Of a stretch of DNA of 64,000 nucleotides, positions 8,642 to 47,997 are shown one piece after another. The notes beneath the pieces were generated by a model. The model was not told the origin of the DNA, searched no databases, and was given only the letters and a program-made list of their open reading frames with translations. This stretch comes from an uncultured Actinomycetota bacterium. Its GTDB lineage: Bacteria > Actinomycetota > Actinomycetes > CAVWCF01. Numbering within the stretch: the stretch's first letter is position 1; every line of letters begins with the position of its first letter. The translations under genes and the position numbers were made by a program. The stretch is from positions 1,344,001 to 1,408,000 of the forward strand of contig CAVWCF010000001.1 of NCBI GenBank assembly GCA_963753435.1. The letters run 5' to 3'.

Positions 8642-9256
8642 TCAGTCGTCGACACGGCGGACCAGCCAGGCACCCACACCGGCCTGGTCCCACCGGTACT
8701 GCGACAGCAACCCGTCGGCGTCAACGGTGAACTCAGCGCCGGATTCATACGAGCCACCGACGACCCGGTGCGTGCTGGAGCCGCCGGTTTCGTCCACCAG
8801 CTCGGCGGTGCGTACGTCCACGACCGGTGCCAGCAGGTCCATCGGGTCAGCTCCCGGCCGGATGTCCGGCACGCACACGGGCGCGCCTTCGGGACCGGCC
8901 GCACCAAGAGCACGCACTACCGGGCCGGCGTAGATACGCAGCAACGGCAGCAGGAGCGCCGGACCGGAGACTTCGTCCTCGTAGGCGTGACCGTCGACGG
9001 TGCGCAACACCCGGATGCGGTCATCGGCCCGGCGGTACTCCGCAGTCACAGTCACGTTCGGCATCGTCAGGGCAATCGAGGCGGCCGCGAGGGCGGAGTC
9101 GAAGTCATCCAGATAGACCGCCGTCACAGCCAGGTCCACACCGAAGTCCGGTGCCTGCCGCCGGGAGGTCACCAGCGATCCGTCGACCGCGAACGTCTCC
9201 GTCAGCGGCTGCTGCTCACCGCCGAGGAAGTACTCAAACCGACCGGTCCGCTTCAC
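8642..9256 (-). CDS. Hypothetical protein (start uncertain, 9256-9289)
   Basis: Protein-like composition; overlaps the 3' end of nfnB, so probably co-transcribed. Confidence 0.6.
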   Translation of the reverse strand: MKRTGRFEYFLGGEQQPLTETFAVDGSLVTSRRQAPDFGVDLAVTAVYLDDFDSALAAASIALTMPNVTVTAEYRRADDRIRVLRTVDGHAYEDEVSGPALLLPLLRIYAGPVVRALGAAGPEGAPVCVPDIRPGADPMDLLAPVVDVRTAELVDETGGSSTHRVVGGSYESGAEFTVDADGLLSQYRWDQAGVGAWLVRRVDD

Positions 9257-10712
9257 GGCGCGCATCGTCGCATGCGCCCAAGTACCCATCGATCGCGGCG
9301 GCTATTCGCTTACCGTCGCCCATCGCCAGAATGACGGTGGCCGCGCCACGGACGATGTCGCCGCCGGCGAACACCCCCGGCATGGACGACTCCCCCTCTT
9401 CGTTGACGACGATGTAGCCGCGGGAGTCGAGTTCCAGGTCCGGTGCGGTTGCGGTCAACAGCGGGTTTGCCCTCGTCCCGATGGCCATGATGACGTTGTC
9501 GCATTCCACCGTGAACTCCGAATCGGGGATCGGCTCGGGACGCCGCCGGCCGGATTCGTCCGGCTCCCCCAGTTGCATCCGCACACACCGCAGCCCGCGC
9601 ACCCAACCGTCGTCATCGCCGAGCACCGCCACCGGCGAAGTCAGGAAGTCGAACTCCACGCCCTCGGCCTCGGCATGCCCAACCTCCTCCGCCCGGGCGG
9701 GCAGTTCGGCGGCGGACCGTCGATAGACGATCCGCGCGTGCTCGGCACCCAGGCGTCGGGCTGTGCGGACCGCGTCCATGGCCACGTTGCCGCCGCCGAC
9801 GACGGCGACGCTGTGCCCGTGCAGCACGGGGGTGTCGGAGTCCGGCCGCCAGGCGCCCATCAGGTTGACCCGGGTCAGGTACTCGTTCGCGGAGAAGACC
9901 CCCTTCAGGTTCTCTCCGGGGATGTCCATGAACACCGGTAGTCCCGCCCCAACTGCCACGAACACTGCGTCGAACTGCTCACGCAACTGCGGCAGTGTGT
10001 AGGTGCGGCCGATGATCGCGTTGCACTCAATGGTCACGCCCTGGCGCTCGAGCCGCTGCACCTCCCGGCGGACGATCTCCTTGGGCAGCCGAAACTCCGG
10101 GATGCCGTAAAGAAGCACGCCGCCGGGTTCGTGGAAAGCCTCGTACACGGTGACCGCGTGACCGAGTTTGGCCAGTTCGCCGGCAGCCGTGAGCCCAGCA
10201 GGCCCCGACCCGATGACCGCGACGCTACGCCCGGTCGGCGCGGCCGACTCGGGAATCAGATCCAAGTTCTCCGCAGCCCAGTCGGCGACGTAGCGCTCCA
10301 AGTAGCCGATACCGACCGGGGTGCCGTCCACCCCCAACATGCGCGTGCCGCGCGGGCACTCCCCTTCGCACTGCGTCTCCTGCGGACACACCCGCCCAGT
10401 GACGCCCGGCAGCGCGTTGCACTCCAGCAGCACGCGGGCGGCCGACTCCAGATCCCCGGCGACGACGTGACCGATGAACTCGGGCACGTTTACACCGACC
10501 GGGCACCCCTCCATGCAGTGCGGCTTACGGCAACCGAGGCACCGGCGCGCTTCCAGCACGGCGATGTCTCCGGGCAGCCCCAGGTTCACCTCGGCGAAGG
10601 TGTGTGCGCGTTCGGCCGCATCGCGCTCGGGCATGGACTGCCGGGCGATCTGCAGCCGCTGTTTGTTGTTGAGCGGCCCGTCAGGGATCTGCTGGGCGTC
10701 CAGGTGTGGCAT
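9234..10712 (-). CDS. nfnB: NfnB/SudA-type large subunit (GltD-like, two [4Fe-4S] clusters, FAD)
   Basis: CLGCRKPHCMEGCP, GRVCPQETQCEGEC, GSGPAGL, YGIPEFRLPK, VGGGNVAMDAVRTA and GGDIVRGAATVILAMGDG; no gltB nearby and adjacent to nfnA. Confidence 0.85.
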   Translation of the reverse strand: MPHLDAQQIPDGPLNNKQRLQIARQSMPERDAAERAHTFAEVNLGLPGDIAVLEARRCLGCRKPHCMEGCPVGVNVPEFIGHVVAGDLESAARVLLECNALPGVTGRVCPQETQCEGECPRGTRMLGVDGTPVGIGYLERYVADWAAENLDLIPESAAPTGRSVAVIGSGPAGLTAAGELAKLGHAVTVYEAFHEPGGVLLYGIPEFRLPKEIVRREVQRLERQGVTIECNAIIGRTYTLPQLREQFDAVFVAVGAGLPVFMDIPGENLKGVFSANEYLTRVNLMGAWRPDSDTPVLHGHSVAVVGGGNVAMDAVRTARRLGAEHARIVYRRSAAELPARAEEVGHAEAEGVEFDFLTSPVAVLGDDDGWVRGLRCVRMQLGEPDESGRRRPEPIPDSEFTVECDNVIMAIGTRANPLLTATAPDLELDSRGYIVVNEEGESSMPGVFAGGDIVRGAATVILAMGDGKRIAAAIDGYLGACDDARREADRSV

Positions 10713-11545
10713 CACACCTCCACCTGGCAGGCTCGACGTCGCATGGCTTCGGCTTCGAAGTGCGCGTAGGTCGTGAGGCGATCGGCCAAAGAGTCGAAGT
10801 CGACCACGTGACCATCGAACTCCGGACCGTCCACACAGGCGTACTGGGCCTGCCCGTCGATGCTCACCCGGCATCCGCCGCACATCCCGGTCCCGTCGAG
10901 CATGATCGAGTTCAGCGACACGACAGTGTCTATCTGCATCGGGCGGGTCAGCTCCGCGCAGGCGCGCATCATCGGCACCGGCCCGACCGCGTAGACGCGG
11001 TTCACGGATTCGGTTGCCATGACGTCAGCCAACGCATCGGTCACCAGACCCTTGCGTCCGGCGCTGCCGTCCTCGGTGCAGACCACGACGTCGCCGATCT
11101 CGGACAACTCGTCGGTCAGGATCAAACCGCCTGCTGTCCGGGCGCCGACTATGGAAGTCACTGCCACACCACTGTCCGCCAGCGCACTGGCGATGGGCCA
11201 GGTGACCGCGGTCCCCACGCCCCCGCCGACGCAAACGGCACGTCCGGCCGCGAGCAGATCCGTTGGCCGTCCGAGCGGACCGGCGACATCCCTGATGTCA
11301 TCGCCCACTTCGAGATCGCAAAGGTCGGCCGTGCTCTTGCCGACGGCTTGAATGATCAGCGTGATCGTCCCGGCGTCCGGATCCGCCGCGGCGATGGTCA
11401 ACGGGATGCGCTCCGCACCGTCGCCCAGGCGAACGATCACGAATTGGCCCGGTCGGCGTACCTGCGCGATGCGCGGGGCTTCAACGTCGAAACGGGTCAC
11501 CGTTTCCGACAGCGGGTCCTTGGCTCGAATCAGCGCCACTGGCAC
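10712..11545 (-). CDS. nfnA: NfnA/SudB-type small subunit (FNR-like, [2Fe-2S])
   Basis: RPGQFVIVR, ERIPLTIA, GPLGRP, VGGGVGTA and LNSIMLDGTGMCGGCRV..ACVDGPEFD; stop/start overlap with nfnB. Confidence 0.88.
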   Translation of the reverse strand: MPVALIRAKDPLSETVTRFDVEAPRIAQVRRPGQFVIVRLGDGAERIPLTIAAADPDAGTITLIIQAVGKSTADLCDLEVGDDIRDVAGPLGRPTDLLAAGRAVCVGGGVGTAVTWPIASALADSGVAVTSIVGARTAGGLILTDELSEIGDVVVCTEDGSAGRKGLVTDALADVMATESVNRVYAVGPVPMMRACAELTRPMQIDTVVSLNSIMLDGTGMCGGCRVSIDGQAQYACVDGPEFDGHVVDFDSLADRLTTYAHFEAEAMRRRACQVEV

Positions 11546-11597
11546 CTCCGGCTCCAGGAAGTGCCTTCAGTCTTGTCGAAGCAACGCAGACCCGGCA

Positions 11598-11611
11598 GGG
11601 CCCGAGGTCCC
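11598..11611 (-). promoter_or_regulatory. DosR/DevR-like box upstream of nfnA
   Basis: GGGACCTCGGGCCC on the minus strand, about 53 nt upstream of the start; resembles GGGAC-N4-G(T/G)CCC. Confidence 0.55.
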
Positions 11612-11647
11612 CGCGACGGCCAGCCCTTCTCCGCGTGGGCGCCTTTG

Positions 11648-13021
11648 TCAGCGAGGCGAGCGCTTGCTCGACCCCTGGCTGCTGCCCCGGCCGCGCCCAC
11701 TTCTGCCGGCACCCCGATCGGAGTGCGCACCGTGCCGCTGCTGCGGACGACGCGACCGGCCACGAGCCGGCCTGGCAGCGGCGGGTTGAGCCGGGCCCGA
11801 GTGGCTCACGACGGGCTCCACGTGCGGTGCTCGCGGGCCGCGCAGCTCTTCAATGACCGAGTGTCCCTCGGAGACGTTCGTCCGCGTCGGGTTGATGCCT
11901 GCGCGCTTGGACAGGCCCCGGACGCTGCCGTGCTGGTCAGGCGTGGCCAGGGTGATGACGGTGCCACCGGAACCGGCGCGGGCGGTACGCCCCGACCGGT
12001 GCAGGTAGGTCTTGTGATCGGCGGGCGGGTCGACGTGCACCACTAGGCCGATGTCATCGACGTGGATGCCGCGGGCGGCGATGTCGGTGGCGACCAGAAC
12101 CCGAACCTGCCCGTTTGAGAACGCGGCGAGGTTGCGCTCGCGCTGCTTCTGGCTCAGGTTGCCGTGCAGGTCCACTGCCGGGATGCCGGCCTTGGTCAGG
12201 TTCGACGCCATCCGCTTGGCCATGTGCTTGGTGCGGGTGAAGAACAGGGTGCGCCCATGACCGGCGGCAAGGTCATGCACGATCGCGGTCTTGTCGTTGT
12301 GCGCCACGGCGAACACGTGGTGCTCCATCGGCGTTGAATCCACCGAGACCGGCGGGTCGACCTCAACCACCAGCGGATCGCGCGTGTACCGGCGAACCAG
12401 AACGTCGATGTCCTTGTCCAGGGTGGCGGAGAAGAACAGACGCTGGCCCGTCTTGGGCGTGGCGTCCAGCAACCGCTTCACCGGGGGCAGGAAGCCGAGG
12501 TCGGCCATGTGATCGGCCTCGTCCAGGACCGCGACCTCGACCGCGTCGAGGTTGCAGTTACCGGACTTGATGAGGTCCTCAAGGCGACCCGGGGTCGCAA
12601 TCAGTACGTCGACGCCCTTGCGCAGCGCGCTGAGTTGCGGCCCATAGCCAACGCCGCCGAAAACGGTGGTGACCGTCATTCCGGCTGCGCGCGCCAGCGG
12701 TGCGAACGTCTCAGCGACCTGACGTGCCAACTCACGGGTCGGCACCAGCACCAGCGCCCGGGGCCGAAGCACCTGGCGCCGCTTTCCGGAGGCGTCCAGT
12801 GCCATCACGGTCGGCACCGCGAACGCCACGGTCTTGCCGGAACCGGTACGGCCCCGGCCAAGGACGTCGCGTCCGTTGATGGCAGCCGGGATGGCAGCGG
12901 TCTGAATCGGGAACGGATCGGTGATGCCCTGCTTGGCAAGGGCGTTGATCAAGTGGTCGGGGAGCCCGAGCGCGGCGAATCCGGGCGCAGACGTGCGGGA
13001 CTGTTCGGTGTGCGTGTTCAT
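11648..13021 (-). CDS. DEAD-box RNA helicase
   Basis: Q motif, GRTGSGKT, VPTRELA, TPGRL, DEAD, SAT, ARGIHV and HRSGRTARAG; RBS GAGG before ATG 13021. Confidence 0.93.
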   Translation of the reverse strand: MNTHTEQSRTSAPGFAALGLPDHLINALAKQGITDPFPIQTAAIPAAINGRDVLGRGRTGSGKTVAFAVPTVMALDASGKRRQVLRPRALVLVPTRELARQVAETFAPLARAAGMTVTTVFGGVGYGPQLSALRKGVDVLIATPGRLEDLIKSGNCNLDAVEVAVLDEADHMADLGFLPPVKRLLDATPKTGQRLFFSATLDKDIDVLVRRYTRDPLVVEVDPPVSVDSTPMEHHVFAVAHNDKTAIVHDLAAGHGRTLFFTRTKHMAKRMASNLTKAGIPAVDLHGNLSQKQRERNLAAFSNGQVRVLVATDIAARGIHVDDIGLVVHVDPPADHKTYLHRSGRTARAGSGGTVITLATPDQHGSVRGLSKRAGINPTRTNVSEGHSVIEELRGPRAPHVEPVVSHSGPAQPAAARPARGRSRRPQQRHGAHSDRGAGRSGRGRGSSQGSSKRSPR

Positions 13022-13175
13022 TGCTTCCTCAAACTGAAGGTGGGCGGCCGCGGGTGCGGGATACCCAAGCGTCAGCGGGGAATCAGCGCGCCGAATCGGC
13101 GCTCGCAAGTCGACCCGGAATTCGCCCGGCGGGCGCGTTCCGTGCCGGAATCGTCTCACGGATGCGCTGCAGAAC

Positions 13176-14051
13176 CTATTCGCGACTTCGCCCGGGTGCC
13201 ACGGCTTGCAGCACCGCCTCGCTGCCGGCGTACACACCGTCGGCCCGGGGCCAGTGCACGAGCAGGTCGGTGAAGCCAAGTTCGGCGGCGCGCCCGGCGC
13301 AGTCCTCGAAGAAGTCCACCGAAGACAACGCGGCTCTGCCGTTCGAATCGACCATCAGGTATCGGTCCACCGAATCTGCGTTGCGGCCGGCGGCAGCAAG
13401 GGTTTCGGTGAACCGCTGACTCAGTTCAGCCACGCCGTCCCACCACGCCGTCAATCCGTCGGCACCCTCGGTCGTTCCGGTGGTGACCCACCCCTGCCCG
13501 AACCTGGCGGCCAGGCGCATCAGGCGCGGGCCGTTGGCGGCGACTACGAATGGCGGTCGGGGCTGCTGCACCGATGCCGGGATCATCCTCGCGTCCACCG
13601 CCTTGAAGTAGTCCCCGTCGTAGTCGGTACGCGGCCGGGTGAGCAGGGCGTCAAGCAGTTCGACGAACTCCGCGAACCGGTCGGCCCGCTGCGACGGCGG
13701 CAACACTTCGCCGCCGAGGACGGTCGCGTCGAAACCCACGCCGCCGGCCCCCATGCCCACCAGGAGTCGACCGCCGCTGACGTCGTCGAGCGTCATCAGG
13801 TCCTTGGCCAGCGGCACCGGATGCCGGTAGTTGGGGGAGGTGACCATCGTGCCGAGGCGGATGCGGTCGGTTACCCCGGCGGCGGCTGTGAGTGTTGTTA
13901 GGGCGCCGAACCAGGGACCGTCGGCCAACGTGCGCCAGGACAGGTGGTCGTACGTCCAGGCGTGCGCGAAGCCGTACTCCTCAGCCGCCACCCAAAGCGG
14001 CCGTGCTTGTGCCCAGCGGTACTCCGGAAGGATCACGATGCCGAGCCGCAT
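13176..14051 (-). CDS. LLM-class flavin-dependent oxidoreductase
   Basis: HAWTYDHLSW, IRLGTMVTSPNYRHP and LDDVSGGRLLVGMGAG. Confidence 0.88.
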   Translation of the reverse strand: MRLGIVILPEYRWAQARPLWVAAEEYGFAHAWTYDHLSWRTLADGPWFGALTTLTAAAGVTDRIRLGTMVTSPNYRHPVPLAKDLMTLDDVSGGRLLVGMGAGGVGFDATVLGGEVLPPSQRADRFAEFVELLDALLTRPRTDYDGDYFKAVDARMIPASVQQPRPPFVVAANGPRLMRLAARFGQGWVTTGTTEGADGLTAWWDGVAELSQRFTETLAAAGRNADSVDRYLMVDSNGRAALSSVDFFEDCAGRAAELGFTDLLVHWPRADGVYAGSEAVLQAVAPGRSRE

Positions 14052-14093
14052 GGACACGTCGTCATCCTGGCACCGCTAGGCCAGACTCAAGTC

Positions 14094-15488: not shown

Positions 15489-15632
15489 AGCGAACCGCAC
15501 TCAGCTGGATCGGCCTTTTCCATCGAAGACTAGGGACCTAAGTCACGTTTACCGAATCTCGGGAACGCGACCTCATGCGGTGCCGTCTCCTAATTGTCCG
15601 ACCAATGCACAGATCAGGAGGATCTGAACCTA

Positions 15633-16463
15633 ATGAAGAAGACTTGGATGGCAGGCATCGCAACCGCAGTCGCCGCCGGTGCGATCGCCGTTCCCACCGT
15701 GGCCGGCGCAGCCGAGGGCTACGAGACCAACAACGGGCTTCGCTTCAGCAACCTGACCACCTACTGCGCCGAGGTGCAGATCAAGACCGCCGGCCTGGAC
15801 CGTGGTGCCGTCGCGATCGTTGTTGACGAGTACACCGCCAACGCCGATGTCACCGACCCCAAGGGCTTCAGCGCCTTCAAGAAGTCCAAGCCCACGGCCA
15901 ACGCTGATACCGGGACCATCACGGTCAGCCAGCTCGTCGCTCGCGATGCCGCGGGCAACCCGACGCAGGTGCTGTGCAAGACGAAGGCGTTCGACGGCCT
16001 CGAGGCCGCGTTCGGCCCGGAGATCTTCGACCCGGAGACCCCAGCAATGCCCGCCAACGCCGTGACCGAGTCGGTCTTGCGCGAGGCGCTCGTCACCACC
16101 GACCCCGCGGAGCGCGCGAAGGTGGCCAAGCGGCTAGACACCACCATCGTTGACCCGACCACCTACCAGTTGGGCGGCAACGGCTGGGCCGTGCTGAACT
16201 TCGAGACCATCAAGGCCGACGCCGGTCTGACGCACCTGCGCACCAACGCGCTGTCGACGTCCGCCGACCCGGCAGCCACTCTGCCGAACCCGGTTGTGGA
16301 CGCGCTGAACGCCCAGTTCGGCCGCTTCATGCCGGCACCGCTGCCCTACGGGACCACCCAGGGCGACCTGATCCGGGCCGGACTGCTGGACGCCGGAATC
16401 CTGGGCACGCTGTACACCACGACCCCGACGGTGAACGCGGTCGCGGACGCGCTGACTGCCTGA
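15633..16463 (+). CDS. Secreted hypothetical protein
   Basis: AGGAGG RBS; signal peptide MKKTW..AGA-AE; strong C-ending codon bias; followed by a terminator. Confidence 0.8.
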   Translation: MKKTWMAGIATAVAAGAIAVPTVAGAAEGYETNNGLRFSNLTTYCAEVQIKTAGLDRGAVAIVVDEYTANADVTDPKGFSAFKKSKPTANADTGTITVSQLVARDAAGNPTQVLCKTKAFDGLEAAFGPEIFDPETPAMPANAVTESVLREALVTTDPAERAKVAKRLDTTIVDPTTYQLGGNGWAVLNFETIKADAGLTHLRTNALSTSADPAATLPNPVVDALNAQFGRFMPAPLPYGTTQGDLIRAGLLDAGILGTLYTTTPTVNAVADALTA

Positions 16464-17516: not shown

Positions 17517-17860
17517 TTCGCCGGTTGCCCTGCTAGGTAGTCCAAGCCCATGTCATTGAGCCAGTACAGGGTGGTAGTGGGCCGATCCCACAGGCTGCCT
17601 GTCCTGATGCGAGTCGTCTCGCCGCGTGGTTTCGTGACGATTTCGTGAAGCGGGCTTGAGCCTGATTCCCGTCGATGCCGACGACTCACCGCGTCATCAC
17701 TCTGGGCTAGCGCACAGCACCCAAACCGGCCCCTTCGAGTCCAACCGCTCTCGTGCAGGGCGGGCCTTGCGACCCTGACTGCGGGTGGATCGCCGCTTCT
17801 AGTCTGGGGGTGTCGCACCGGTACCGCTGATGGCGGGACTGCGGGGCCCAGGCGAGGTGA

Positions 17861-36357: not shown

Positions 36358-37272
36358 ATGCGTTTCGGAATGGTGGGACTCGGGCGGATGGGCGCGGGGT
36401 TGTCCCGCCGAGCTGCCCAGGGCGGTCACGAGGTGGTGGCGTTCGACCAGGACGAGTCGGTGCGAGCCGCGCTGGGCGCCGAATCGAACATCGAGACGGT
36501 GGCATCGCTGTCGGCACTCGTTACCGCCTTGCCGCAGCCGCGGACTGTCTGGTTGATGCTGCCGGCCGGGGAAATCACCGAGTCCGTGCTGCGCCAGGTC
36601 GCGGACCTGCTCGGTCGCGGTGACCTGATCATCGAAGGGGGCAACTCCCACTACCCGGACTCCCAACGGCGCGGCCAGGAACTGGCCGAACGCGGAATCA
36701 GTTTCGTGGACGCCGGGGTGTCCGGTGGGGTCTGGGGTCTGACCGAGGGCTTCGGTCTCATGGTCGGCGGCAGCGCACAGTCGGTGGCGCACGTGGAACC
36801 CCTGCTACGCAGCCTGGCCCCCACTCCCGACACCGGCTGGGTGCACGCTGGCGATGTCGGCGCCGGGCACTTCACGAAGATGGTGCACAACGGCATCGAG
36901 TACGGGCTCATGCAGGCCTACGCCGAAGGCTTCGCTGTCCTGCAGGCCAAACCCGAGTTCGACATCGACGTGGCCGCGGTCGCCGAGGCCTGGCGCTACG
37001 GGACGGTGATCCGGTCGTGGCTGCTGGATCTGATGGCGCAGGCGCTGTCCGCCGACGACCTGGACGAGATTGCCCCGGTCGTGGCCGACTCCGGGGAGGG
37101 TCGGTGGACGGTCAAGGAGTCGGTGGACCTTGGCATTCCCGCACCGGTCATCAGCGCCGCGTTGACGGCACGGTTCGCCAGTCAGGGCGATGCGGACCTG
37201 GCCAATCGCCTGCTTGCCGCCACCCGTCGCGGCTTCGGCGGCCATGCCGTCATGCCGGAGCCGCCGGACTGA
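36358..37272 (+). CDS. gnd: 6-phosphogluconate dehydrogenase, short form
   Basis: GLGRMG, DAGVSGGVWG, KMVHNGIEYG, DSGEGRW and FGGH. Confidence 0.93.
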   Translation: MRFGMVGLGRMGAGLSRRAAQGGHEVVAFDQDESVRAALGAESNIETVASLSALVTALPQPRTVWLMLPAGEITESVLRQVADLLGRGDLIIEGGNSHYPDSQRRGQELAERGISFVDAGVSGGVWGLTEGFGLMVGGSAQSVAHVEPLLRSLAPTPDTGWVHAGDVGAGHFTKMVHNGIEYGLMQAYAEGFAVLQAKPEFDIDVAAVAEAWRYGTVIRSWLLDLMAQALSADDLDEIAPVVADSGEGRWTVKESVDLGIPAPVISAALTARFASQGDADLANRLLAATRRGFGGHAVMPEPPD

Positions 37273-37978
37273 GCGCAGCCTGGTCCGTAACGAGTACCGC
37301 GCCCGGTGGGATCACCTGGGCAGCGATGCTGCCCGGATCGGACGCGAGCAGCGCGGCGACGGCGTCGGTCTTGCCAGGCCCCGTGGCCAGAACCACGCAG
37401 GTGCGCGCGGCCGACAGAACCGGTGCGGTCAGCGTCACCCGACGATGACCCCGGTAGGCGCCGGTGGCGGTAGCGAACTTCTGCCGCTCCAGCCGCGCCG
37501 GGTCGCCGGGGACGAGCGAGGCGGTATGCCCGTCATCGCCCAGCCCCAGGTGCAGCACGTCGAGCACCGGTGGGTCGCCGCCAACGCCGACGAGGGTCGC
37601 CGCGTAGGCAGCAGCGGATTCGTCCAGGTCCGAGCCGATGGGGATCAGATGCACCTGCCCGCTCGGGATCACGTCGATCAAGGGCAGCAACGAACTCGCG
37701 TTGCGCTCAGCGCTACCCGCGGCGACTTGACGCTCGTCGACCTGAAACAACTCGACCTCGGCAAAGGGCACGGGCAGCTCGGCTAGGTAGCGCAACATCG
37801 GCGCTGGGGTGCTCCCGCCGCTGACGGCCAGCAGCGCCCGGCCGCGCTCGGACACCGCGGCTACCAAAGCGTCGGCGAGCAATTCGGCCGCGACCGCGGC
37901 CGCCGCATCCGCAGTGGGACAGGCAATAACGCTGCCCGGGGCCGTACTCATTGAGCCGTACTCATCGGGGCCTGTCAC
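37250..37978 (-). CDS. pgl: 6-phosphogluconolactonase
   Basis: [22 protein letters not shown] and RVTLT. Confidence 0.9.
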
Positions 37979-39363
37979 TCGGCCGGTTCATGCCAGCCGC
38001 CCACATCAGCAGCCAGGGCGTCACCGGCTGACGGGCCCCAGGTGCCCTGCCGGTAGGAGTCCGGGGAGCCGGCGGCGCCGTCCAGCAGCGGGTCGACGAT
38101 GCGCCACGCCTCCGCAACAGCATCGGAACGGGCGAACAGGGTCTGGTCCCCGTCAAGGGCGTCCCCGATCAAGCGCTCGTAGGCAGTGGCATGTGCGGCG
38201 GAGTCGTCCACGGTGAGTAGTTCCACGTTGCGCCCGGCCATGTCCTCGCCGGGCCGCTTGACCCGGTTGCCAAGAGCGATCGTGATCCGATCCGGACCCA
38301 ACCGGAAGCGGACGTGGTTGGTGTCACGAGGCAGGGTCTCGTCGAACACCCGGTGCGGCGGCCGGTGGAAGGTGACCAGGACCTCGGTCGCGGTCACCGG
38401 TAGGCCCTTACCCGCGCGAACCAGGAAGGGCACCCCGGCCCACCGCCAGGAGTCGACGTTGAGGCGAACCGCTGCGTAGGTCTCGGTGTCCGATTCGGCC
38501 GCGACCCCGTCGACTTCGCGATAACCCTCGTACTGCCCACGCACGAGGTCAGCCGGTCCCGGTGCGGTGATGGCGCGCAACACCTTGACCCGTTCGTCGC
38601 GAACCGCGGCCGAGTCCATGCCCACCGGTGGCTCCATCGCCAGCAGGGAAACCACTTGCAGCAAGTGGTTCTGCACCACATCGCGCACCGCGCCGAGTTC
38701 CTCATACAGGGCGCCGCGGCCGCGAACCCCGAACGCCTCAGCCATCGTCACCTGCACGCTGGAGACATAGGTGCGGTTCCACAACGGTTCCCACACCGAG
38801 TTGGCGAACCGGAAGTACAGGAGGTTCTGCACCGACTCTTTGCCGAGGTAGTGATCGATCCGGAAGATCGACTCCTCGGCAAAGGCCCGGTGCAGCACTG
38901 CGTCCAACTCGCGCATCGAGTCGAGGTCGCGCCCGTACGGCTTCTCCACGACCACGCGGCCACCCCGGATCGCGTCGGCGGACTCCAAGTGCTCAACCAC
39001 GTCGTCGAACAGGCTTGGTGGGATGGCCAGGTAGAAGAGGGGCCGCTCGGCTTGCCCCAATGCCTGCCGCAGCCGCTCGAAAGTGGCCGGGTCGGAGTAG
39101 TCGCCCGCGACGAAGCGCAGGTTCTTCTCGATCTGGTCCAGGGCGTCGTTGTCCGGACTGCCGAACTCCGCGACGCTGTCGACGATGCGGTCGCGCAGCC
39201 AGGACTCCGACCGATCGCCGCGCGCGACGCCGATTATCGGGATGTCCAGGCGGCCGGCCTGCATGAGCGACTGCAACGCCGGGAAGATCTTTCGGTAGGA
39301 GAGGTCACCCGTGACCCCGAAAAGCACCAGGGCGTCACAAGAGCCACCGACCGACACGCTCAT
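37975..39363 (-). CDS. zwf: Glucose-6-phosphate dehydrogenase
   Basis: [28 protein letters not shown] and AYERL. Confidence 0.96.
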
Positions 39364-41003: not shown

Positions 41004-41030
41004 TCAAGTGCTCCGCGGGCGGGCCGAAAC
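41004..41030 (+). promoter_or_regulatory. Sigma-28 (FliA/WhiG)-like promoter
   Basis: TCAA-N15-GCCGAAAC, ending 7 nt before GTG 41038. Confidence 0.55.
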
Positions 41031-41037
41031 CGGGAAG

Positions 41038-41880: not shown

Positions 41881-41929
41881 TCCGCCAGTTCCGCCTACGA
41901 CCACCGACGTCAATGGGCAAGATGCCCGC

Positions 41930-42763
41930 ATGACGCAGGTCCTGCGCTACGCGGCGTTCACTGACGACCCGGCCGGCGGCAACCCGGCCGGAGTGGTGCT
42001 GGACGCAGATCTGACCGACGCAGCCAGGATGCAGCGCATCGCCGCTGAGGTCGGCTTCTCCGAGACCGCGTTCGTTCGCCGCAACGACGCCGAATCGGTG
42101 ACGGTGCGGTACTTCGCGCCCGCAACCGAGGTGCCGTTCTGCGGACACGCCACCATCGCGGCCGCGGTGGCGCTGGCCGAACGCGAGGGCCCGGGCAGCA
42201 TCCGCTTCGACACCCCGGCCGGTTCGGTGCCGGTAGAAACGAGTTCGGCGTCCGGGCGAATGCTGGCAACGCTGGTATCCGTGGAACCCGACGTAACCGA
42301 GGTGGCCGAGGCAGTCGCGTCCGCGGCACTTGCCGCGCTCGGCTGGCACCGCGACGACCTGAATCCGGAGTTGCCGATCCGGTCGGCGTACGCCGGGGCG
42401 GAGCACCTAGTCCTGGTCGCGCGCACCCGACAGCGGTTGGCGCACCTGGATTACGACGTCGATGCGCTGCGCGCGCTGATGCTGGCTCACAACTGGACCA
42501 CAGTGCACCTGGCCTGGCCGCAGAACGCGGACCTGCACCATGTGCGCAACCCGTTCCCGGTTGGTGGCGTGTACGAGGACCCGGCTACCGGCGCGGCGGC
42601 GGCCGCTTACGGCGCCTACCTCCGCGACCTTGGCGCGGTACCGAACGACGCCACCGTCACTTTGCTGCAGGGTGAGGACATGGGCCGACCCAGCCGGCTT
42701 GAGGTCCAACTGGTCGCCGACGACGCCCGGGTGCGGGTCAGTGGCGGAGCAGTCGAACTCTGA
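41930..42763 (+). CDS. PhzF-family isomerase
   Basis: AFT...GGNPAGV, FSETAF, EVPFCGHAT, EDPATGAA and QG..MGRPS. Confidence 0.92.
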   Translation: MTQVLRYAAFTDDPAGGNPAGVVLDADLTDAARMQRIAAEVGFSETAFVRRNDAESVTVRYFAPATEVPFCGHATIAAAVALAEREGPGSIRFDTPAGSVPVETSSASGRMLATLVSVEPDVTEVAEAVASAALAALGWHRDDLNPELPIRSAYAGAEHLVLVARTRQRLAHLDYDVDALRALMLAHNWTTVHLAWPQNADLHHVRNPFPVGGVYEDPATGAAAAAYGAYLRDLGAVPNDATVTLLQGEDMGRPSRLEVQLVADDARVRVSGGAVEL

Positions 42764-42771
42764 GTCGCTCG

Positions 42772-42942
42772 CTACTCCTTGCTGGGCAGCACCGCGATGA
42801 CGATCAGGCCGATGAGCGGCAGCACGAACCCCAGCAGGCCGTAGCCGAGCCGGCTGCGGTTCTTCCGCGCGGCGATCGCGGCACAGATGAGCCCGAAGAC
42901 CGCCGCGACCACGAGGGCGACCAATAGCACCCAGACGTCCAT
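42772..42942 (-). CDS. 56-aa two-TM small membrane protein (not in the ORF track)
   Basis: MDVWVLLVALVVAAVFGLICAAIAARKNRSRLGYGLLGFVLPLIGLIVIAVLPSKE; AGGAGG RBS. Confidence 0.8.
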   Translation of the reverse strand: MDVWVLLVALVVAAVFGLICAAIAARKNRSRLGYGLLGFVLPLIGLIVIAVLPSKE

Positions 42943-42982
42943 CACATTCCTCCTGTTGTGCTGGTCCGGCTACGCTTCCCGC

Positions 42983-43645
42983 ATGAGTGCCGTGATGCCC
43001 CTGGCTGCTGGCCGCGGGACCACGCGCGAGCGCATTGTGTCGCAGTTGCGTGATCAGATCGTGGACGGCTCGCTGTCTCCGGGGTTCCCGCTGCGCACCG
43101 AGGAGTTCATGAAGCGGCTGGGAGTGTCCAGTTCTCCGCTGCGTGAGGCGTTCGTGCAGTTGGAGGCCGAGGGCCTGGTCACGGTGAGCCCGAACCGGGG
43201 CGCATCGGTCACCACACTCACACAACGCGACGCGTCGGACCTGCTGCAAGTGACCGCGCTGCTGTGGGACGCCGTTGCCCGCTGGACGGTGCCGGTTCTC
43301 GATACCGACCAGGTCACCAAATTGCGCAGAGCAGCAGGGAACTTCGCCCTGGCGTTGCGCAGCGGGGACGTCCGGGGCGCGGTGCTTGAGGCCGAGAGGT
43401 TCCAGTCCGAACTGCTGCTTGCTTGCTGGAGCACTGAGCTCGTTCGGTCGGTGCAGGCGATCCGCTCCCGCCAGCAGCGCGTGCTGCGGGCGCTGGCGAC
43501 GCCGGAGACCCTGGACCCCATCATCGATTTCCATGAAGCCGTTCTGGTCCACGCCGGCGAATCGAGCGCCGAGGCCGCCTGCGAGGCCCTGCGCGAGGTG
43601 TGGCGCGTGCAGCAAGCCGCATTGGGAGTTCTGCCAGCACAGTGA
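42983..43645 (+). CDS. GntR-family (FCD) regulator
   Basis: LRDQIVDG.L.PG, LGVSSSPLREA..QLEAEGLV and NRGA.V. Confidence 0.88.
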   Translation: MSAVMPLAAGRGTTRERIVSQLRDQIVDGSLSPGFPLRTEEFMKRLGVSSSPLREAFVQLEAEGLVTVSPNRGASVTTLTQRDASDLLQVTALLWDAVARWTVPVLDTDQVTKLRRAAGNFALALRSGDVRGAVLEAERFQSELLLACWSTELVRSVQAIRSRQQRVLRALATPETLDPIIDFHEAVLVHAGESSAEAACEALREVWRVQQAALGVLPAQ

Positions 43646-44115
43646 CTGTGCAAGGACGCCTTCCCCAGACGGCTGAGTCAGCCGCGGAACGAAGGCGCGC
43701 CCGACAGCGATCGGCTGCGATGCGCCAACGTGCCGGCGCCTGGAACCGTCGGCTGGGCTGGATCCTGCTCCCGATCGTCCTGACCGCGGTCACCATGCAC
43801 TACCTGGGCGCCCAGACCGGAACTGCCAACACCGTCGTCCTGGTACTGCAGTTCACCTTTGTGCCGCTGTGGGCTGTGCACACCGCGCTCAGCGTCTACG
43901 TGTTCGGTTGGGTGCGACCCGCCTTGACCTTGCGGGTATTCCACATCTGGTTCGGGTACGCATACATCGGGTTGGTGCTGCTGTCGCAGACCACCTTCGG
44001 GGTTGAACCGCTGCACGCGATCGCGACGGTTGCGATGTTCGCCGCCCTCGCCACCCACGTCGGAATCGGTATCTACTACGCCCGCTGGCGGCGGCGCGGA
44101 GTGCTCCTGCCGTAG
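43642..44115 (+). CDS. Four-TM His-containing membrane protein
   Basis: GTGA overlap with the GntR gene; hydrophobic helices carrying five His. Confidence 0.6.
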   Translation: MTVQGRLPQTAESAAERRRARQRSAAMRQRAGAWNRRLGWILLPIVLTAVTMHYLGAQTGTANTVVLVLQFTFVPLWAVHTALSVYVFGWVRPALTLRVFHIWFGYAYIGLVLLSQTTFGVEPLHAIATVAMFAALATHVGIGIYYARWRRRGVLLP

Positions 44116-44120
44116 GCCGC

Positions 44121-44136
44121 GTTACCGAATCGTTAC
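44121..44136 (+). promoter_or_regulatory. MtrA/GlnR-type direct repeat
   Basis: GTTAC-N6-GTTAC upstream of the FG-GAP gene. Confidence 0.5.
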
Positions 44137-44228
44137 CAAAACTGGGTTGTTGTGCCCAATCTTGTACGCAAACCTAATCCGAACCCGGCGCGAACTGCGC
44201 ACAGCCCATGACTCCTGGAGCCCACTTC

Positions 44229-45728
44229 ATGAATCGCTACCTTCGAACCGGCCTAGCCGCCGGGGCAGCCGTGCTGCTGCCCATCGGCTTCGTCGGCGTG
44301 GCCGATGCGGCCACCGACCCAGTCTTTGATCTCACCCTCGTCGATGCCGCACTGCCCGGCGCCGCCTTCATCGTGAACGGCAACGTCAATGGCGACGTGC
44401 GGCCCGAACTAGTTGCCACCGCCTTCGGTCCGTACGCCGGTCCGGCGCCGGCCGGAGCGGGGACCGTCACGCTCTACAACAACACCGCCAAGAACAAGCA
44501 GGGCGGCGACATCGACAGCTGGGCGCCGACCACGATCGTTCCGCAGAGCGCGGGCATCTACGGCCCCAACCAGCCCACGCTTTCCGACGTCGACGGTGAC
44601 GGCGACGTGGATGTCATCCTGCCGGGCGGCAACTTCTTCAAGTCCACGTTCTCGACGCTCGGCCCGCCGTTCAGCAATGTGGGCAGCGGCACCCTCTCCT
44701 GGTGGGAGAACCGCGCCAACGGCAGCACCTGGATCGGCCATGACATCGTCGCCGACAGCACCTTCACCGGTCCGTCGACGGCGCCGTTCGACCCGGATGG
44801 TCCCGGCCCCGCGCCCGCCATTCCCGGTACGACGCAGCGGAACTACTCCTACCACGGCGTGGAGCACGTTGACTTCGACGGCGACGGCATCAAGGACCTC
44901 GTTACCGTCGGCGAGGACGGCGGGAACCCGTCCGACGCAACCGACGACCTCACGCAGTTGCAGTACCTGCCCGGCCTCGGCGGCGGCAACTTCGGTGCGC
45001 CGGTCGACCTCGGTCCCGGTGGCGGCAGCCTCCCGGTCGTGGACGACGTGAACGGCGACGGCGACTTGGATGTCGTCTCTGCGCAGTTCTTCGGCGCGGT
45101 TCAAGGTCAGCCGTTCATCCCGCCGTTCGCACGTACCCCAGCGAGTTCGTCGTACGTGTGGTTCGACCGGACCGGTACCGCGGCCGACGGTCTGGACGCG
45201 TCTGACTTCACCCCGCGCATCATCGGAGCCGCCCAGGGCCCCGGCTTCTCCATCCAGAAGGTGGAGAACCTCCGCGGCGATGGCATCGACAGGTGGGTCG
45301 CGACCAACCACACCAACGACAAGGTTCCGTTCCCGCCGTTCAGCCTCCAGCCGAAGCCGAACGTGTACGAGTTCACGCCTGGAGCCAACCCGACCCAGCC
45401 GTGGAGCGTCGTCCAGCTGACGCAGGACGGTGACATCTCCATCACCGGCCCGCCGCCGTCGAACCCGGGCCAGGCCGCACCTGGCGTCACTTCCCCTGGC
45501 GACCTGGACGGCGATGGCGACATCGACCTGGCAGTGTCTGGGGACGGTGACCGTCAGGTGTTCTGGCTGGAGCAGGTGAGCCCCGGGTCCTTCGAGTTGA
45601 ACCAACTGCCCGGAGGCACTGGATGGGGTCAGGCTGGCGCGACCGCGGGCGACCTCAACCGGGACGGCGTCGCCGAGATGGCGTTCGCCTCCTTCGACAA
45701 GAGCCAGGTAGGTATCTGGCAGAGCTAG
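44229..45728 (+). CDS. Secreted FG-GAP/VCBS repeat beta-propeller protein
   Basis: Signal peptide; about seven DxDGDG-type Ca-binding motifs. Confidence 0.85.
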   Translation: MNRYLRTGLAAGAAVLLPIGFVGVADAATDPVFDLTLVDAALPGAAFIVNGNVNGDVRPELVATAFGPYAGPAPAGAGTVTLYNNTAKNKQGGDIDSWAPTTIVPQSAGIYGPNQPTLSDVDGDGDVDVILPGGNFFKSTFSTLGPPFSNVGSGTLSWWENRANGSTWIGHDIVADSTFTGPSTAPFDPDGPGPAPAIPGTTQRNYSYHGVEHVDFDGDGIKDLVTVGEDGGNPSDATDDLTQLQYLPGLGGGNFGAPVDLGPGGGSLPVVDDVNGDGDLDVVSAQFFGAVQGQPFIPPFARTPASSSYVWFDRTGTAADGLDASDFTPRIIGAAQGPGFSIQKVENLRGDGIDRWVATNHTNDKVPFPPFSLQPKPNVYEFTPGANPTQPWSVVQLTQDGDISITGPPPSNPGQAAPGVTSPGDLDGDGDIDLAVSGDGDRQVFWLEQVSPGSFELNQLPGGTGWGQAGATAGDLNRDGVAEMAFASFDKSQVGIWQS

Positions 45729-45745
45729 TCACGTAACCAGAGGGA

Positions 45746-45783
45746 AGAGTTGGGGCCCGGCCTTACGGCCGGGCCCCAACTCT
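45746..45783. terminator. Hairpin terminator between convergent genes
   Basis: Perfect 17-bp stem AGAGTTGGGGCCCGGCC-TTAC-GGCCGGGCCCCAACTCT. Confidence 0.8.
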
Positions 45784-45817
45784 GTTCCGTAGACCGAGAT
45801 TGCGGTCAAAGCGGCAG

Positions 45818-46330
45818 TCAGATGAAGAGCAACTGCGCGCCTTCAGTCATCTCGATGAAGTCCGACGCGGAGATGATCGCCTCGACTCCCTCGTACAGGT
45901 CGTCCTTGCCCAGGTGGTTCATGTCCGCGGACATCTTGCAGGCCCATAGGCGGCCACCGGAAGCGCTGATCTGATCGAGGAAGTCCGGGACCTCCGGAAC
46001 GTCGAGCTCGGCGATCGACTTCTTCAACTTGTTCGTGGCCATCGCGGTGACGCCGGGCAGTCCGCCCATCCCTTGGGGCATGTGCGTGGCGGGGTTGCCC
46101 AGGGGCGTGAACTTGAGGTGCCCCATCGTTTCCTTGTTGATGATCTCGAAACCCCAGAAGGTGAAGAAGAGGTGCACCTCAACACCTTCACCGAGTGCGG
46201 CGTTGGCGAGGATCAGGCCCGGGTAGGCCATGTCCAGGCTGCCCTTGGAGCAGATGATCGCCAGCTTGCGCTGACCGCCTTCTTCGTCGTCGAAGGCCGG
46301 TACTAGCGGGGCTGTTGATGTGGTGGTCAT
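45818..46330 (-). CDS. DsrE2/DsrH-like (DsrE/F family) sulfurtransferase
   Basis: SKGSLDMAYP, LFFTFWG and WACKMSAD. Confidence 0.88.
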   Translation of the reverse strand: MTTTSTAPLVPAFDDEEGGQRKLAIICSKGSLDMAYPGLILANAALGEGVEVHLFFTFWGFEIINKETMGHLKFTPLGNPATHMPQGMGGLPGVTAMATNKLKKSIAELDVPEVPDFLDQISASGGRLWACKMSADMNHLGKDDLYEGVEAIISASDFIEMTEGAQLLFI

Positions 46331-46342
46331 TTCAATCTCCAA

Positions 46343-46657
46343 TCAGACGCAGCCGACAGGCTTGGGTAGCCCGGCTACGTACGCCATCTTCTTGGCCGGC
46401 TTCTTCGGGAACAGGGTGAACAACTCCTTGGTCGGAATGCCGCCGACTGTGGAGACCCGGCGCAGCGTGGGCGTCTCGCCCTCGGCCTTGAAGTCCTCGC
46501 GCAGGAAGCGGATCGCCTTCCAGTGCTCATCGGTCATCTCGATACCGATCAGCGTGGCCAACTCCTTGCCGAGCGTCTCATCCCACTCGTCGTAGTTGGT
46601 CATGAAACCCTCGTCGTCGACCTGAACGTCGCGACCGGCGATGGTTGTGGTGGTCAT
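46343..46657 (-). CDS. tusE: TusE/DsrC-family sulfur carrier with a single C-terminal Cys
   Basis: DDEGFM, MTDEHW..IRFLR and LFP.KP....YVAGLPKPVGCV. Confidence 0.9.
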   Translation of the reverse strand: MTTTTIAGRDVQVDDEGFMTNYDEWDETLGKELATLIGIEMTDEHWKAIRFLREDFKAEGETPTLRRVSTVGGIPTKELFTLFPKKPAKKMAYVAGLPKPVGCV

Positions 46658-46695
46658 GAACTCATTCCTCTCTTCGTGCGCCTGAGGTTGTGCAT

Positions 46696-47934
46696 CTACG
46701 CAGCGGATTCGTCTTTGCCGGCCATGCTCATGGCCGCGGGCACTGGCATGGGGCGACCCGGCAGCAGCACGTTCCAGTACATCCAGCGGAACGCCAACTT
46801 GCCCCAGTGGTTCTGCCGTGTCTCCTTGAGCAGGCTGAACGGGCCGACCCCCGGCACCGGGTACTTGCCCGGCAACGGCTGGGTGTCGTAGTTGAAGTCG
46901 ATCAGCAGGGCCTTGCCCTGGCCTGACTCGATGAAGCAGTTGGCGTGCCCGTCGAACAACTCCGTCATCGGGCGGCCGGCAATGTGCTCGACGAAGTTGT
47001 CGGCGAACATGTCGACGGCGAAGTGGGCCACCGAACCAGCCTTCGACGTCGGCAGGTCAGCGGCGTCACCAAGGGCGAAGACGTTGTCGTACTTCTTCGA
47101 AAGCATGGTGTGTTTGTCGACAGCGACGTAGTTCAACTCGTTGCCGAGACCACTACGGGCGATGAAGTCCGCTCCCATGTTCAGCGGCACGGTGACCAGC
47201 AGATCGAACGGCACCTCGCGCTCGTCCATGGAGACGATCTGCTTCTTCTCGTTGTCGACGGTGTCGATGTAGAAGTCCGGCTCCAGGGCGATCCCCCGCG
47301 ACTGCAGCATGTCGCCGAGATGCTTGGAGGCAACCGGCTTGGTGAAAGCGCCGTCCAGCGGCGTCACGTAGGTGATGTCAACCCGGTCCCGGATCCCACG
47401 CTGCTTGAAGTAGTCGTCGGCCAGGAAGGTGAACTCCAGCGGAGCCACCGGGCACTTGATCGGCATCTCAGTGATGTGCACGACCAAGCGGCCGCCGTGG
47501 AAGTCCTTCAGCGTCTGAGCCAGCGCCGTCGCCCCCTCCAGCGTGTAGAACTCATGCACGCTCTTGCGGAACTCCGGCCCATCCATTCCCGGTGTTTGGT
47601 CCGGGCGCGGAGACGACCCGGACGCGATGATCAGGTAGTCGTACTCCAGGGTGTGACCACCCTTGAGATGCACCTGATTGGCATCGGCGTCCACCTTGTC
47701 GATGTCGGCCAATACCAACTTCACCCCGGGGTCGAGCTGCTTGCGCTTGGGCTTGGTTAGGTCCTCGGGTTGGTACCAACCAAACGGAACAAACAGATAC
47801 CCAGGCTGGTAGTAGTGATCCGGGTCGACGTCTACGACCGTGATCTCCCACTCACCCGCGGGTAGTCGGGGACGCAACTTGTTGGCAGCCATCGTGCCTG
47901 CCGTGCCGCCCCCGAGAATTACGAGTCGACTCAT
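46696..47934 (-). CDS. sqr: Sulfide:quinone oxidoreductase-like flavoprotein (type III-like)
   Basis: LGGGTAG, HYYQPG, IKCPVAPLE, FALGDA, TSKAGS and FDGHANCFIE. Confidence 0.85.
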   Translation of the reverse strand: MSRLVILGGGTAGTMAANKLRPRLPAGEWEITVVDVDPDHYYQPGYLFVPFGWYQPEDLTKPKRKQLDPGVKLVLADIDKVDADANQVHLKGGHTLEYDYLIIASGSSPRPDQTPGMDGPEFRKSVHEFYTLEGATALAQTLKDFHGGRLVVHITEMPIKCPVAPLEFTFLADDYFKQRGIRDRVDITYVTPLDGAFTKPVASKHLGDMLQSRGIALEPDFYIDTVDNEKKQIVSMDEREVPFDLLVTVPLNMGADFIARSGLGNELNYVAVDKHTMLSKKYDNVFALGDAADLPTSKAGSVAHFAVDMFADNFVEHIAGRPMTELFDGHANCFIESGQGKALLIDFNYDTQPLPGKYPVPGVGPFSLLKETRQNHWGKLAFRWMYWNVLLPGRPMPVPAAMSMAGKDESAA

Positions 47935-47969
47935 GACTGGCTCCCTTCGCCCACATTGAACGCTGCCGA

Positions 47970-47983
47970 TACCCCAGGGGGTA
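47970..47983. promoter_or_regulatory. CsoR/CstR/RcnR-family operator
   Basis: Perfect palindrome TACCCC-AG-GGGGTA, 36 nt upstream of the sqr start. Confidence 0.7.
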
Positions 47984-47997
47984 GTGGCCAAAGTCCC
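47984..47997 (-). promoter_or_regulatory. DosR/DevR-like box upstream of sqr
   Basis: GGGACTTTGGCCAC on the minus strand, about 50 nt upstream of the start. Confidence 0.5.

Follow-up and report, generated by a model that had tools for sequence, protein, structure and literature searches.

The DNA analysed here is a stretch of 64,000 nt (hereafter the window; G000:C1:1344001-1408000) from the genome of an uncultured Actinomycetota bacterium, which has a size of 2.17 Mb, a GC content of 68% and a completeness of 98%. The window carries two unlinked operons, nfnAB, encoding an NfnAB (SudAB)-type flavoprotein, and sqr-tusE-dsrE2, encoding a sulfide:quinone oxidoreductase of type III (SQR) together with two small sulfur carriers, and each of them is preceded by a palindrome resembling the binding site of the regulator DosR (DevR). 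A first-pass annotation of the window had proposed that the two operons are induced together at low oxygen through these sites and form a dedicated sulfur pathway running from NfnAB to SQR. Our results are in favour of the first part of this proposal and do not support the second. Both boxes read as conserved copies of the DosR binding motif and are more than chance matches. Co-induction of the two operons at low O2 is likely, because genes for a DosR orthologue and a heme-type kinase are present, the sites are significant and conserved, and the two operons co-occur among genomes of the class. It is probable that nfnAB and sqr-tusE-dsrE2 are members of one broad low-oxygen DosR regulon rather than the halves of a dedicated sulfur pathway.

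The core before nfnAB lies at 11598..11611 on the minus strand, differs from the 14-mer DosR core consensus (GGGAC-N4-GTCCC) at one position and scores 13.2 bits; the core before sqr-tusE-dsrE2 lies at 47984..47997, also on the minus strand, has two mismatches and scores 12.1 bits. A check of the sequence confirmed both 14-mers at the positions first reported, on the strand of their genes. The scores come from a palindromic matrix trained on 47 sqr leaders of other genomes, one per genus; a second matrix was trained on 19 nfnA leaders, all from other genomes as well, and cross-scoring between the two avoids circularity. The leaders of the pyruvate:ferredoxin oxidoreductase (PFOR) gene were tried as an independent training set and rejected as too poorly defined. 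With the sqr-trained matrix and an order-2 Markov null as the chance expectation, the nfnA box is the 18th intergenic site of the genome by score (about 1.4 expected) and the sqr box the 31st (about 4.6 expected), and with the nfnA-trained matrix the sqr box ranks 10th of 348,788 intergenic windows (3.7 expected). Scored against background with matrices learned from other genomes' leaders, both sites are thus significant. Cores with at most one mismatch are also enriched about fourfold between genes, with 27 in 179 kb of intergenic DNA and 75 in 1,988 kb of coding DNA.

The motif was found to be conserved upstream of the orthologues. An unconstrained expectation-maximisation (EM) search on the intergenic DNA of the window genome drifted to a CRP-like motif and was replaced by de novo discovery on orthologue leaders, for which 71 sqr-operon leaders, 47 nfnA leaders and 30 PFOR leaders were available, scanned to a depth of 150 nt. 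Unseeded EM on the leaders of other genomes returned GGGACcTTcGgCCCT as the top motif in both the sqr and the nfnA set; the palindromic log-likelihood was 168 for 47 sqr leaders (26-32 in four shuffles), and the log-likelihood for 19 nfnA leaders was 43 (22-29 in shuffles). At a cut-off of 8 bits with the nfnA-trained core, a box is present in 53 of the 71 sqr leaders, while shuffling gave a mean of 5.0 and a maximum of 11 in 200 rounds. For the nfnA leaders, from which two operon-internal copies in genome G304 were left out, the sqr-trained matrix was used with a cut-off of 11 bits, and a box was detected in 11 of the 13 genomes that have DosR (about E <= 1e-69) and nfnA as the first gene of its operon, in 1/5 genomes with a weak DosR-like match, in 0/7 without DosR and in 1/19 nfnA genomes of the phylum sample that lay outside the DosR search, which covered 85 genomes. 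In G410, one of these 19, a perfect core lies 142 nt upstream and was not covered by the 150-nt scan. Among the sqr genomes 54/58 have DosR at E <= 1e-70, so that this set contains no clean DosR-negative control; G681, G683, G685 and G686, which have only a DosR paralogue with a different helix and keep the boxes in part, may be incomplete assemblies and were counted neither way.

These data bear on the simplest alternative, namely that one or both matches are chance palindromes of a GC-rich genome. The sqr core, with its two mismatches, is a sequence of a kind that occurs often (157 intergenic and 1,292 coding 14-mers at two mismatches), and about 15% of the intergenic sites at its score are expected by chance. 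We consider this alternative highly improbable nonetheless, in view of the conservation of the motif over more than 40 genera, its de novo recovery, its fixed spacing to the -10 element (see below) and the lack of a box in the nfnA genomes without DosR and in nearly all of those outside the DosR search, many of which are GC-rich.

The position of the core relative to the predicted promoter, which is that expected of an activator site, is likewise conserved. A [TC]ANNNT hexamer stands 23-24 nt past the core in 48 of 90 orthologue sites, against 0-2 at most other spacings and 9 at 18 nt; in the window genome 19 of 55 sites show it. In leaderless orthologues the core lies 35-36 nt from the start, which matches the 33-34 nt that separate the proximal 18-bp Dev box of Mycobacterium tuberculosis from the transcription start (PMC3177182). 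At nfnAB the predicted -10 hexamer, AAGACT (11569..11574, minus strand), is 23 nt past the core and thus at the modal spacing. At the sqr operon the candidate is CAATGT (47953..47958, minus strand), an uncertain assignment at 25 nt past the core. Transcription is predicted to start near 11562 for nfnAB and near 47947 for sqr. The first-pass annotation had put both boxes at the same distance from their start codons. Its value for sqr, 50 nt, agrees with ours; its value for nfnA, 53 nt, is probably 59 nt, since the GTG at 11539, and not that at 11545, aligns with the start codons in 12/12 close nfnA orthologues examined (genes were called with our own hexamer model, so gene starts carry some error). 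Equal distance is in any case no sign of a special pair, because, of all pairs that can be formed from the 44 leaders with 11 bits or more, 6.6% agree to within 3 nt. The conserved spacing is that from core to -10 element, 23-24 nt, and not that from core to start codon.

The DosR orthologue on which the proposed co-induction depended is present in the genome. It is encoded at C1:1469939-1470589 and matches M. tuberculosis DevR (PDB 3c3w) at E 9e-77, with the next best match at 3e-43, and its recognition helix is the same as that of DevR. The kinase encoded at C1:1468300-1469925 has the GAF-GAF-HisKA_3 architecture of DosS and DosT and keeps the equivalents of the proximal heme ligand His149 and of the distal Tyr171, by a residue numbering that we presume to carry over to our alignment. 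At the position of Glu87 it carries Ala, as does the O2-binding DosT and not the autoxidisable, H2S-binding DosS. The roles of the His and Tyr residues in the heme kinases, and in part that of Glu87, are described in PMC9062744. The dosS-like gene lies directly behind cydABDC and overlaps its end (L001:2457-10590; G000 C1:1462456-1470589), and dosR stands opposite dosS, overlapping the end of a purD-like gene. As cydABDC has a DosR box of its own, the kinase may be under feedback control.

It could be asked whether the boxes, though real operators, answer to another signal or another protein, that is, whether the kinase senses mainly quinone redox state, NO, CO or sulfide, or whether a different regulator binds a similar palindrome. 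M. tuberculosis DosS also responds to H2S, NO and CO (PMC9062744), the boxed set includes genes without an obvious link to hypoxia, and sqr boxes occur in G681 and G686, whose best DosR matches have a different recognition helix (as said, these assemblies may be incomplete). Against this stand the Ala at the Glu87 position, the fact that the genome has five LuxR-type regulators, a single one of which is DevR-like, and the presence of boxes before the classic DosR targets. An arrangement of this kind appears to us quite unlikely.

Ranking of 1,238 leaders of the genome by the sqr-trained matrix showed how broad the boxed set is. The korA leader ranked 6th, usp-acg 8th, ppdK 16th, nfnA 19th and the gene heading narGHJI 22nd, followed by cydA (33), sqr (34), a group 3b hydrogenase (38), a DUF1918 gene (39) and PFOR (45). 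A ctpF-like gene ranked 99th, and a CBS-domain gene, cstR and pdo came far down the list, at 779, 979 and 996. There are about 35-45 boxed promoters in the genome, and nfnAB and sqr are two of them. Several of the others have counterparts in known regulons: in Streptomyces coelicolor OsdR controls ppdK, usp, nitroreductase and nitrate reductase (PMC5069765), and in M. smegmatis DosR controls the group 3b hydrogenase (10.1101/2023.09.11.557286; PMC8125079).

The sqr promoter differs from that of nfnAB by a second operator, which is absent from the first-pass annotation. The palindrome TACCCC-N2-GGGGTA (47970..47983), of the CsoR/CstR-family type, directly abuts the sqr DosR core and agrees at 9/10 positions with the consensus ATACC-n6-GGTAT of the S. 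coelicolor regulator ScCsoR (PMC7533328). Exact matches to TACCC-N4-GGGTA number five in the genome, all of them intergenic, and sit before sqr, an operon of metallo-beta-lactamase (MBL)-rhodanese, rhodanese and TauE genes, trxA/DUF302, a CMD/rhodanese pair and a Rieske-like gene; a 146-kb intergenic set held four matches, compared with a shuffle mean of 0.07. An N5 variant precedes the single CsoR-family gene of the genome, which lies at C1:1652069-1652338. In the product of this gene the Cu-binding His is replaced by Gly (x-C-G-C), as in all 31 homologues including this one (the other 30 being the best from 60 genomes searched), whereas His occupies the position in alignments of Cu-CsoR; x-C-x-C without His is the signature of actinomycete persulfide sensors (PMC8643695). 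Of the 30 homologues, 23 have the box before their own gene and 24 have homologues of pdo, rhodanese, tauE, DUF302, CMD or sqr as neighbours. This CsoR-family protein is likely a persulfide-sensing, CstR-like repressor of sulfur genes, sqr included.

A CstR-type box was found in 22/71 sqr leaders, and in 0/47 nfnA leaders and 0/30 PFOR leaders. Both boxes occur together in 19/71 sqr leaders, which form 11 genus-level groups with varied arrangements, six of the 19 coming from one genus. Since the CstR-type box stands at sqr and in none of the nfnA leaders, and since pdo and cstR rank low for the DosR motif, the sqr operon likely marks the intersection of the DosR and CstR regulons and nfnAB would belong to the DosR regulon alone. 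On this model the sqr promoter would act as an AND gate, opened by DosR activation together with release of the CstR-like repressor, whose predicted operator covers the -35 region. A third palindrome, which we take to be of the CRP/GlxR type (TGTGA-N6-TCACA with two mismatches; 48007..48022), has its centre 24 nt upstream of the DosR box at sqr, the place where one would expect a secondary DosR site. The genome has a Crp-family gene, and the box is weakly conserved (5/71 sqr leaders including that of the window genome, with similar geometry only in G011); it is a possible third input at this promoter.

The nfnA gene (10712..11539, minus strand) encodes an NfnS/SudB-like subunit with FAD and [2Fe-2S] (NF004862, 354 bits, cut-off 220), and nfnB (9234..10712, minus strand), whose start overlaps the nfnA stop, encodes an NfnL/SudA-like subunit with FAD and 2[4Fe-4S] (TIGR01316, 570 bits, cut-off 472). 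The best structural matches of NfnA are Pyrococcus furiosus NfnI (5jca_S, E 8e-77) and the Thermotoga maritima protein (4ylf_A), with NfnII reaching only 2e-43, and those of NfnB are 4ylf_B (E 1e-147) and 5jca_L (E 4e-145). The cluster motif DGTGMCGxCR...C of NfnA, whose Asp is a ligand of the [2Fe-2S] cluster, is identical to that of NfnI and is not the PyrK motif. P. furiosus also has a non-bifurcating Nfn paralogue, and the Nfn reaction couples ferredoxin and NADH to NADPH (PMC5861303). The first gene of the other operon encodes a type III SQR, the Cys form of a selenoprotein subtype (46696..47934, minus strand; NF049943, 643 bits, cut-off 525), in which Cys161 and Cys333 (HxxC333) align with conserved Cys residues of human SQOR. 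It is followed by a TusE/DsrC-like sulfur carrier with one C-terminal Cys, ending in ...GCV (46343..46657, minus strand; TIGR03342, 80 bits, cut-off 53.5; PF04358), and by a DsrE2-like sulfur carrier (45818..46330, minus strand), which scores 104 bits with PF13686 (cut-off 25) and stays below the equivalog cut-off of NF047629 (102 against 210).

To judge whether the two operons form one pathway, their distribution in 300 genomes of the class and in a phylum sample of 400 genomes was considered. The 300 class genomes contain sqr in 58, an nfnA-like gene in 11, PFOR in 39 and a group 3b hydrogenase large subunit in 44 cases. The nfn genes occur together with sqr in 10/11 class genomes (2.1 expected), with the group 3b hydrogenase in 11/11 (1.6 expected) and with PFOR in 9/11 (1.4 expected); the 11 genomes span six families and are not independent, and these figures carry no phylogenetic correction. 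Only three of the 11 have stand-alone nfnA-nfnB like the window genome, the other eight having a more distant nfnB-nfnA form (42-44% identity), and 48 of the 58 sqr genomes are without nfn. In the phylum sample nfnA is present in 137/400 genomes, and among the best 29 of these sqr was found in three, plus one partial match; 9 of 13 close actinobacterial nfnA holders have sqr. No sqr, tusE, dsrE2, pdo, rhodanese or tauE homologue was found in 105 nfn loci (some overlapping, with flanks of 1.5-4 kb), one of which had a CsoR-family gene next to a metal chaperone-like one, and 85 sqr loci contained no nfn gene. The neighbours of nfn in other genomes are of another kind: in several Actinomycetes (G149, at L302:49-5972, and also at L303 and L304) a fused NfnB-NfnA of 1,120 aa lies directly behind a POR/ferredoxin-domain gene, in G304 nfnAB follows directly on 2-oxoacid:ferredoxin oxidoreductase genes, and in G066 hydrogenase, PFOR and nfnAB lie within about 28 kb, though not in one operon. 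No genomic or regulatory tie of nfnAB to sulfur genes, as the SudAB role would have it, was found, and what remains is the shared DosR box and the co-occurrence.

A dedicated NfnAB-to-SQR pathway thus does not emerge from these data: the two operons are but two of the many boxed promoters, hydrogenase and PFOR are tied to nfn at least as tightly as sqr is, the CstR-type box is missing from all nfnA leaders, and sulfur genes are missing from all the nfn loci and sqr from most of the best phylum nfnA genomes. Spelled out, such a pathway would be an intracellular shuttle, in which NfnAB, the group 3b hydrogenase or both would reduce carrier-bound persulfide with NADPH to sulfide, SQR would re-oxidise the sulfide into the quinone pool, and TusE and DsrE2 would recycle the sulfur, so that electrons would pass from ferredoxin and NADPH to cytochrome bd or nitrate reductase. 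Redox potentials permit such a shuttle. It would fit the DosR box common to both operons and the joint occurrence of nfn and sqr, which persists when only hydrogenase-positive or only PFOR-positive genomes are considered and extends to the further actinobacterial nfnA genomes; moreover, polysulfide is reduced in vitro by P. furiosus Nfn1 at the expense of NADPH (PMC5861303), NfnAB is abundant in the sulfur-respiring Desulfurella (PMC6378623), and S0 reduction has been suggested for the group 3b hydrogenase of Methylacidiphilum fumariolicum (PMC10205796). The counts just given tell against it, including the many sqr genomes without nfn, as does the origin of the co-occurrence from six families and largely from the distant nfnB-nfnA form, and we hold the shuttle to be unlikely. 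The same doubt attaches to its fullest form, a cryptic sulfur cycle within one cell under DosR, in which NfnAB and the group 3b hydrogenase would reduce persulfide with electrons from ferredoxin and NADPH and a persulfide-gated SQR-TusE-DsrE2 would return those of sulfide to the quinone pool. If such a cycle were true, catalytic sulfur would link fermentation-type enzymes to cytochrome bd and nitrate respiration.

In the broad DosR regulon that we prefer, a fall in O2 would activate the kinase and give phosphorylated DosR, which would shift the oxidation of pyruvate and 2-oxoglutarate to the ferredoxin-linked PFOR and KorAB. NfnAB would then confurcate reduced ferredoxin and NADH into NADPH, and this would be vented as H2 by the group 3b hydrogenase or spent in biosynthesis. 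SQR would oxidise sulfide into menaquinone, from which electrons would go to cytochrome bd or nitrate reductase, and the sulfane sulfur would pass from SQR through TusE and DsrE2 to the CstR-controlled PDO-rhodanese-TauE branch.

Several observations weigh against the broad DosR regulon. The link between nfn and sqr holds among hydrogenase-positive genomes (10/11 with nfn versus 14/33) and among PFOR-positive genomes (8/9 versus 9/30), so that lifestyle alone may not explain it. A strong nfnA box is absent from the DosR-bearing G682 and G066 and present in G683, which has no clear DosR match, and some top-ranked boxes precede unrelated genes, for example those of a CAP-domain cell-wall protein and an ABC binding protein. 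The spacing from core to -10 element at sqr, 25 nt, is 1-2 nt longer than the mode. The PFOR leaders of other genomes are less regular, with a core of at most two mismatches in 12/29 (starts uncertain). No secondary DosR site scores upstream of the box at nfnA or sqr, where at most two of the three key bases were found at offsets -19 to -26; every DosR promoter of M. tuberculosis has two or more boxes, the secondary ones being mostly invisible to prediction (PMC3177182), and tandem boxes are present in several sqr and nfnA orthologues. Finally, the in vivo direction of NfnAB and the cofactor of the hydrogenase are taken from knowledge of their families.

Compared with DosR(DevR)-DosS/DosT of M. 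tuberculosis and M. smegmatis and OsdR-OsdK of S. coelicolor (PMC3177182, PMC5069765, 10.1101/2023.09.11.557286), the system is alike in its orthologous regulator, heme-GAF kinase, palindrome and predicted promoter position and in the targets usp, Acg, ppdK, nitrate reductase and group 3b hydrogenase. It differs in that NfnAB, PFOR, KorAB, cytochrome bd and the type III SQR-TusE-DsrE2 also belong to the boxed set, and in that no secondary tandem box was detected at nfnA and sqr; in M. smegmatis cytochrome bd is treated separately from the dos regulon (PMC8125079). The predicted repressor resembles ScCsoR (SCO0620), cluster 3 of the CsoR-family sequence similarity network and Staphylococcus aureus CstR (PMC7533328, PMC8643695) in its x-C-x-C without His, its ATACC-n6-GGTAT-type operator, and its predicted autoregulation and PDO, rhodanese and TauE targets. 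CstR control of sqr is known from S. aureus (PMC8148161). Unlike in those systems, the operator at sqr abuts or overlaps the DosR box, which predicts dual control, the operon concerned encodes a type III SQR with TusE and DsrE2, and the repressor gene is unlinked. The SQR-TusA-DsrE2 operon of M. fumariolicum SolV (MFUM_v2_0219-21; PMC10205796) also combines a type III SQR with two small sulfur carriers, is upregulated by H2S and is coupled to a sulfide-insensitive oxidase; here the carrier is TusE/DsrC-like instead of TusA and the oxidase is cytochrome bd instead of ba3, and the available text on SolV names no regulator. With NfnAB/NfnI (SudAB) of P. furiosus, T. maritima and Clostridium kluyveri (PMC5861303; PDB 5jca, 4ylf) our NfnAB shares the adjacent two-subunit layout, and it is closer to the bifurcating NfnI than to NfnII. 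The NfnI enzymes were described from anaerobes; the host of this one is an actinomycete that has cytochrome bd and nitrate reductase, and an activator predicted to sense oxygen would control its genes.

Each component, the two regulators included, is of a known kind. Their combination appears to be new: in the full-text literature searched, which leaves out most subscription journals and supplements, we found no account of NfnAB or SQR-TusE-DsrE2 being controlled by DosR, nor of a promoter shared by DosR and CstR; regulon tables in supplements, or databases such as RegPrecise, could list such targets. What is known of the DosR dormancy switch comes mostly from mycobacteria and Streptomyces. 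In these other actinobacteria it appears to govern enzymes of anaerobe type (PFOR, KorAB, ferredoxin, NfnAB and group 3b hydrogenase), and this would account for the way in which 'aerobic' actinobacteria get rid of electrons on ferredoxin during hypoxia. As a candidate for combined control by oxygen and persulfide the sqr promoter is both compact and conserved, and such control would tie sulfide detoxification to the period when sulfide blocks heme-copper oxidases.

Eight metatranscriptome runs contained 5-14% of the words. In four of them sqr, tusE and nfn were covered by short, near-identical contigs, but so were neighbouring genes and the promoter stretch upstream; such contigs speak for presence only and not for start sites or induction.

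In other genomes sqr can lie close to dosR, which favours the broad DosR regulon. It lies within 40 kb of dosR in 10/54 genomes, from five families; G257 has it within a usp-acg-dosR-dosS island, and G063 has it behind DUF1918 and opposite PFOR-dosR. In 20 other genomes of the 71 sqr leaders (e.g. L186, L188, L182) the sqr operon is headed by a gene for a regulator with a helix-turn-helix (HTH) domain, which we take to be PocR-like; the gene is usually leaderless, with a DosR box at 36 nt, and was not found in the window genome. A single in-frame TGA is present in the SQR homologues at L024, L244, L246, L247 and L254, in keeping with the selenoprotein subtype that NF049943 names. In the window, a DUF222 gene (48037-49311) ends 40 nt upstream of the sqr DosR box, and the stretch between the two operons contains, at 37250-39363, a glucose-6-phosphate dehydrogenase and 6-phosphogluconolactonase (G6PD-6PGL) pair, which is a source of NADPH.

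Further boxed genes with a relation to ferredoxin were noticed in the genome. An operon of a DUF169 gene, a 2[4Fe-4S] ferredoxin and a small protein (L342:679-1922; G000 C1:824679-825922) has a 14.2-bit box at 35 nt, the leaderless distance, and its ferredoxin is a candidate partner of PFOR and NfnAB. Three genes resembling ferredoxin-dependent bilin reductase or red chlorophyll catabolite (RCC) reductase (C1:506530, C1:1570329 and C2:126917; L026, L033, L038) all stand behind DosR boxes. One is the last gene of the PFOR operon, and the other two take places 2 and 29 among the 1,238 leaders; the products of all three are possible ferredoxin sinks. The arginine deiminase genes arcC, arcA and an OTC-like gene (L034:8441-11701; G000 C1:1621441-1624701), another low-oxygen source of ATP, are near a boxed flavodoxin-like gene. 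The window itself holds three more boxes: one of 14.4 bits at 8617-8630, 90 nt before an FAD monooxygenase gene (7306-8526), one of 16.2 bits at 15533-15546, 86 nt before the gene of an unannotated, secreted-looking protein (15633-16463), and one of 9.3 bits at 17762-17775, with a -10 element at 24 nt, before an ABC transporter.

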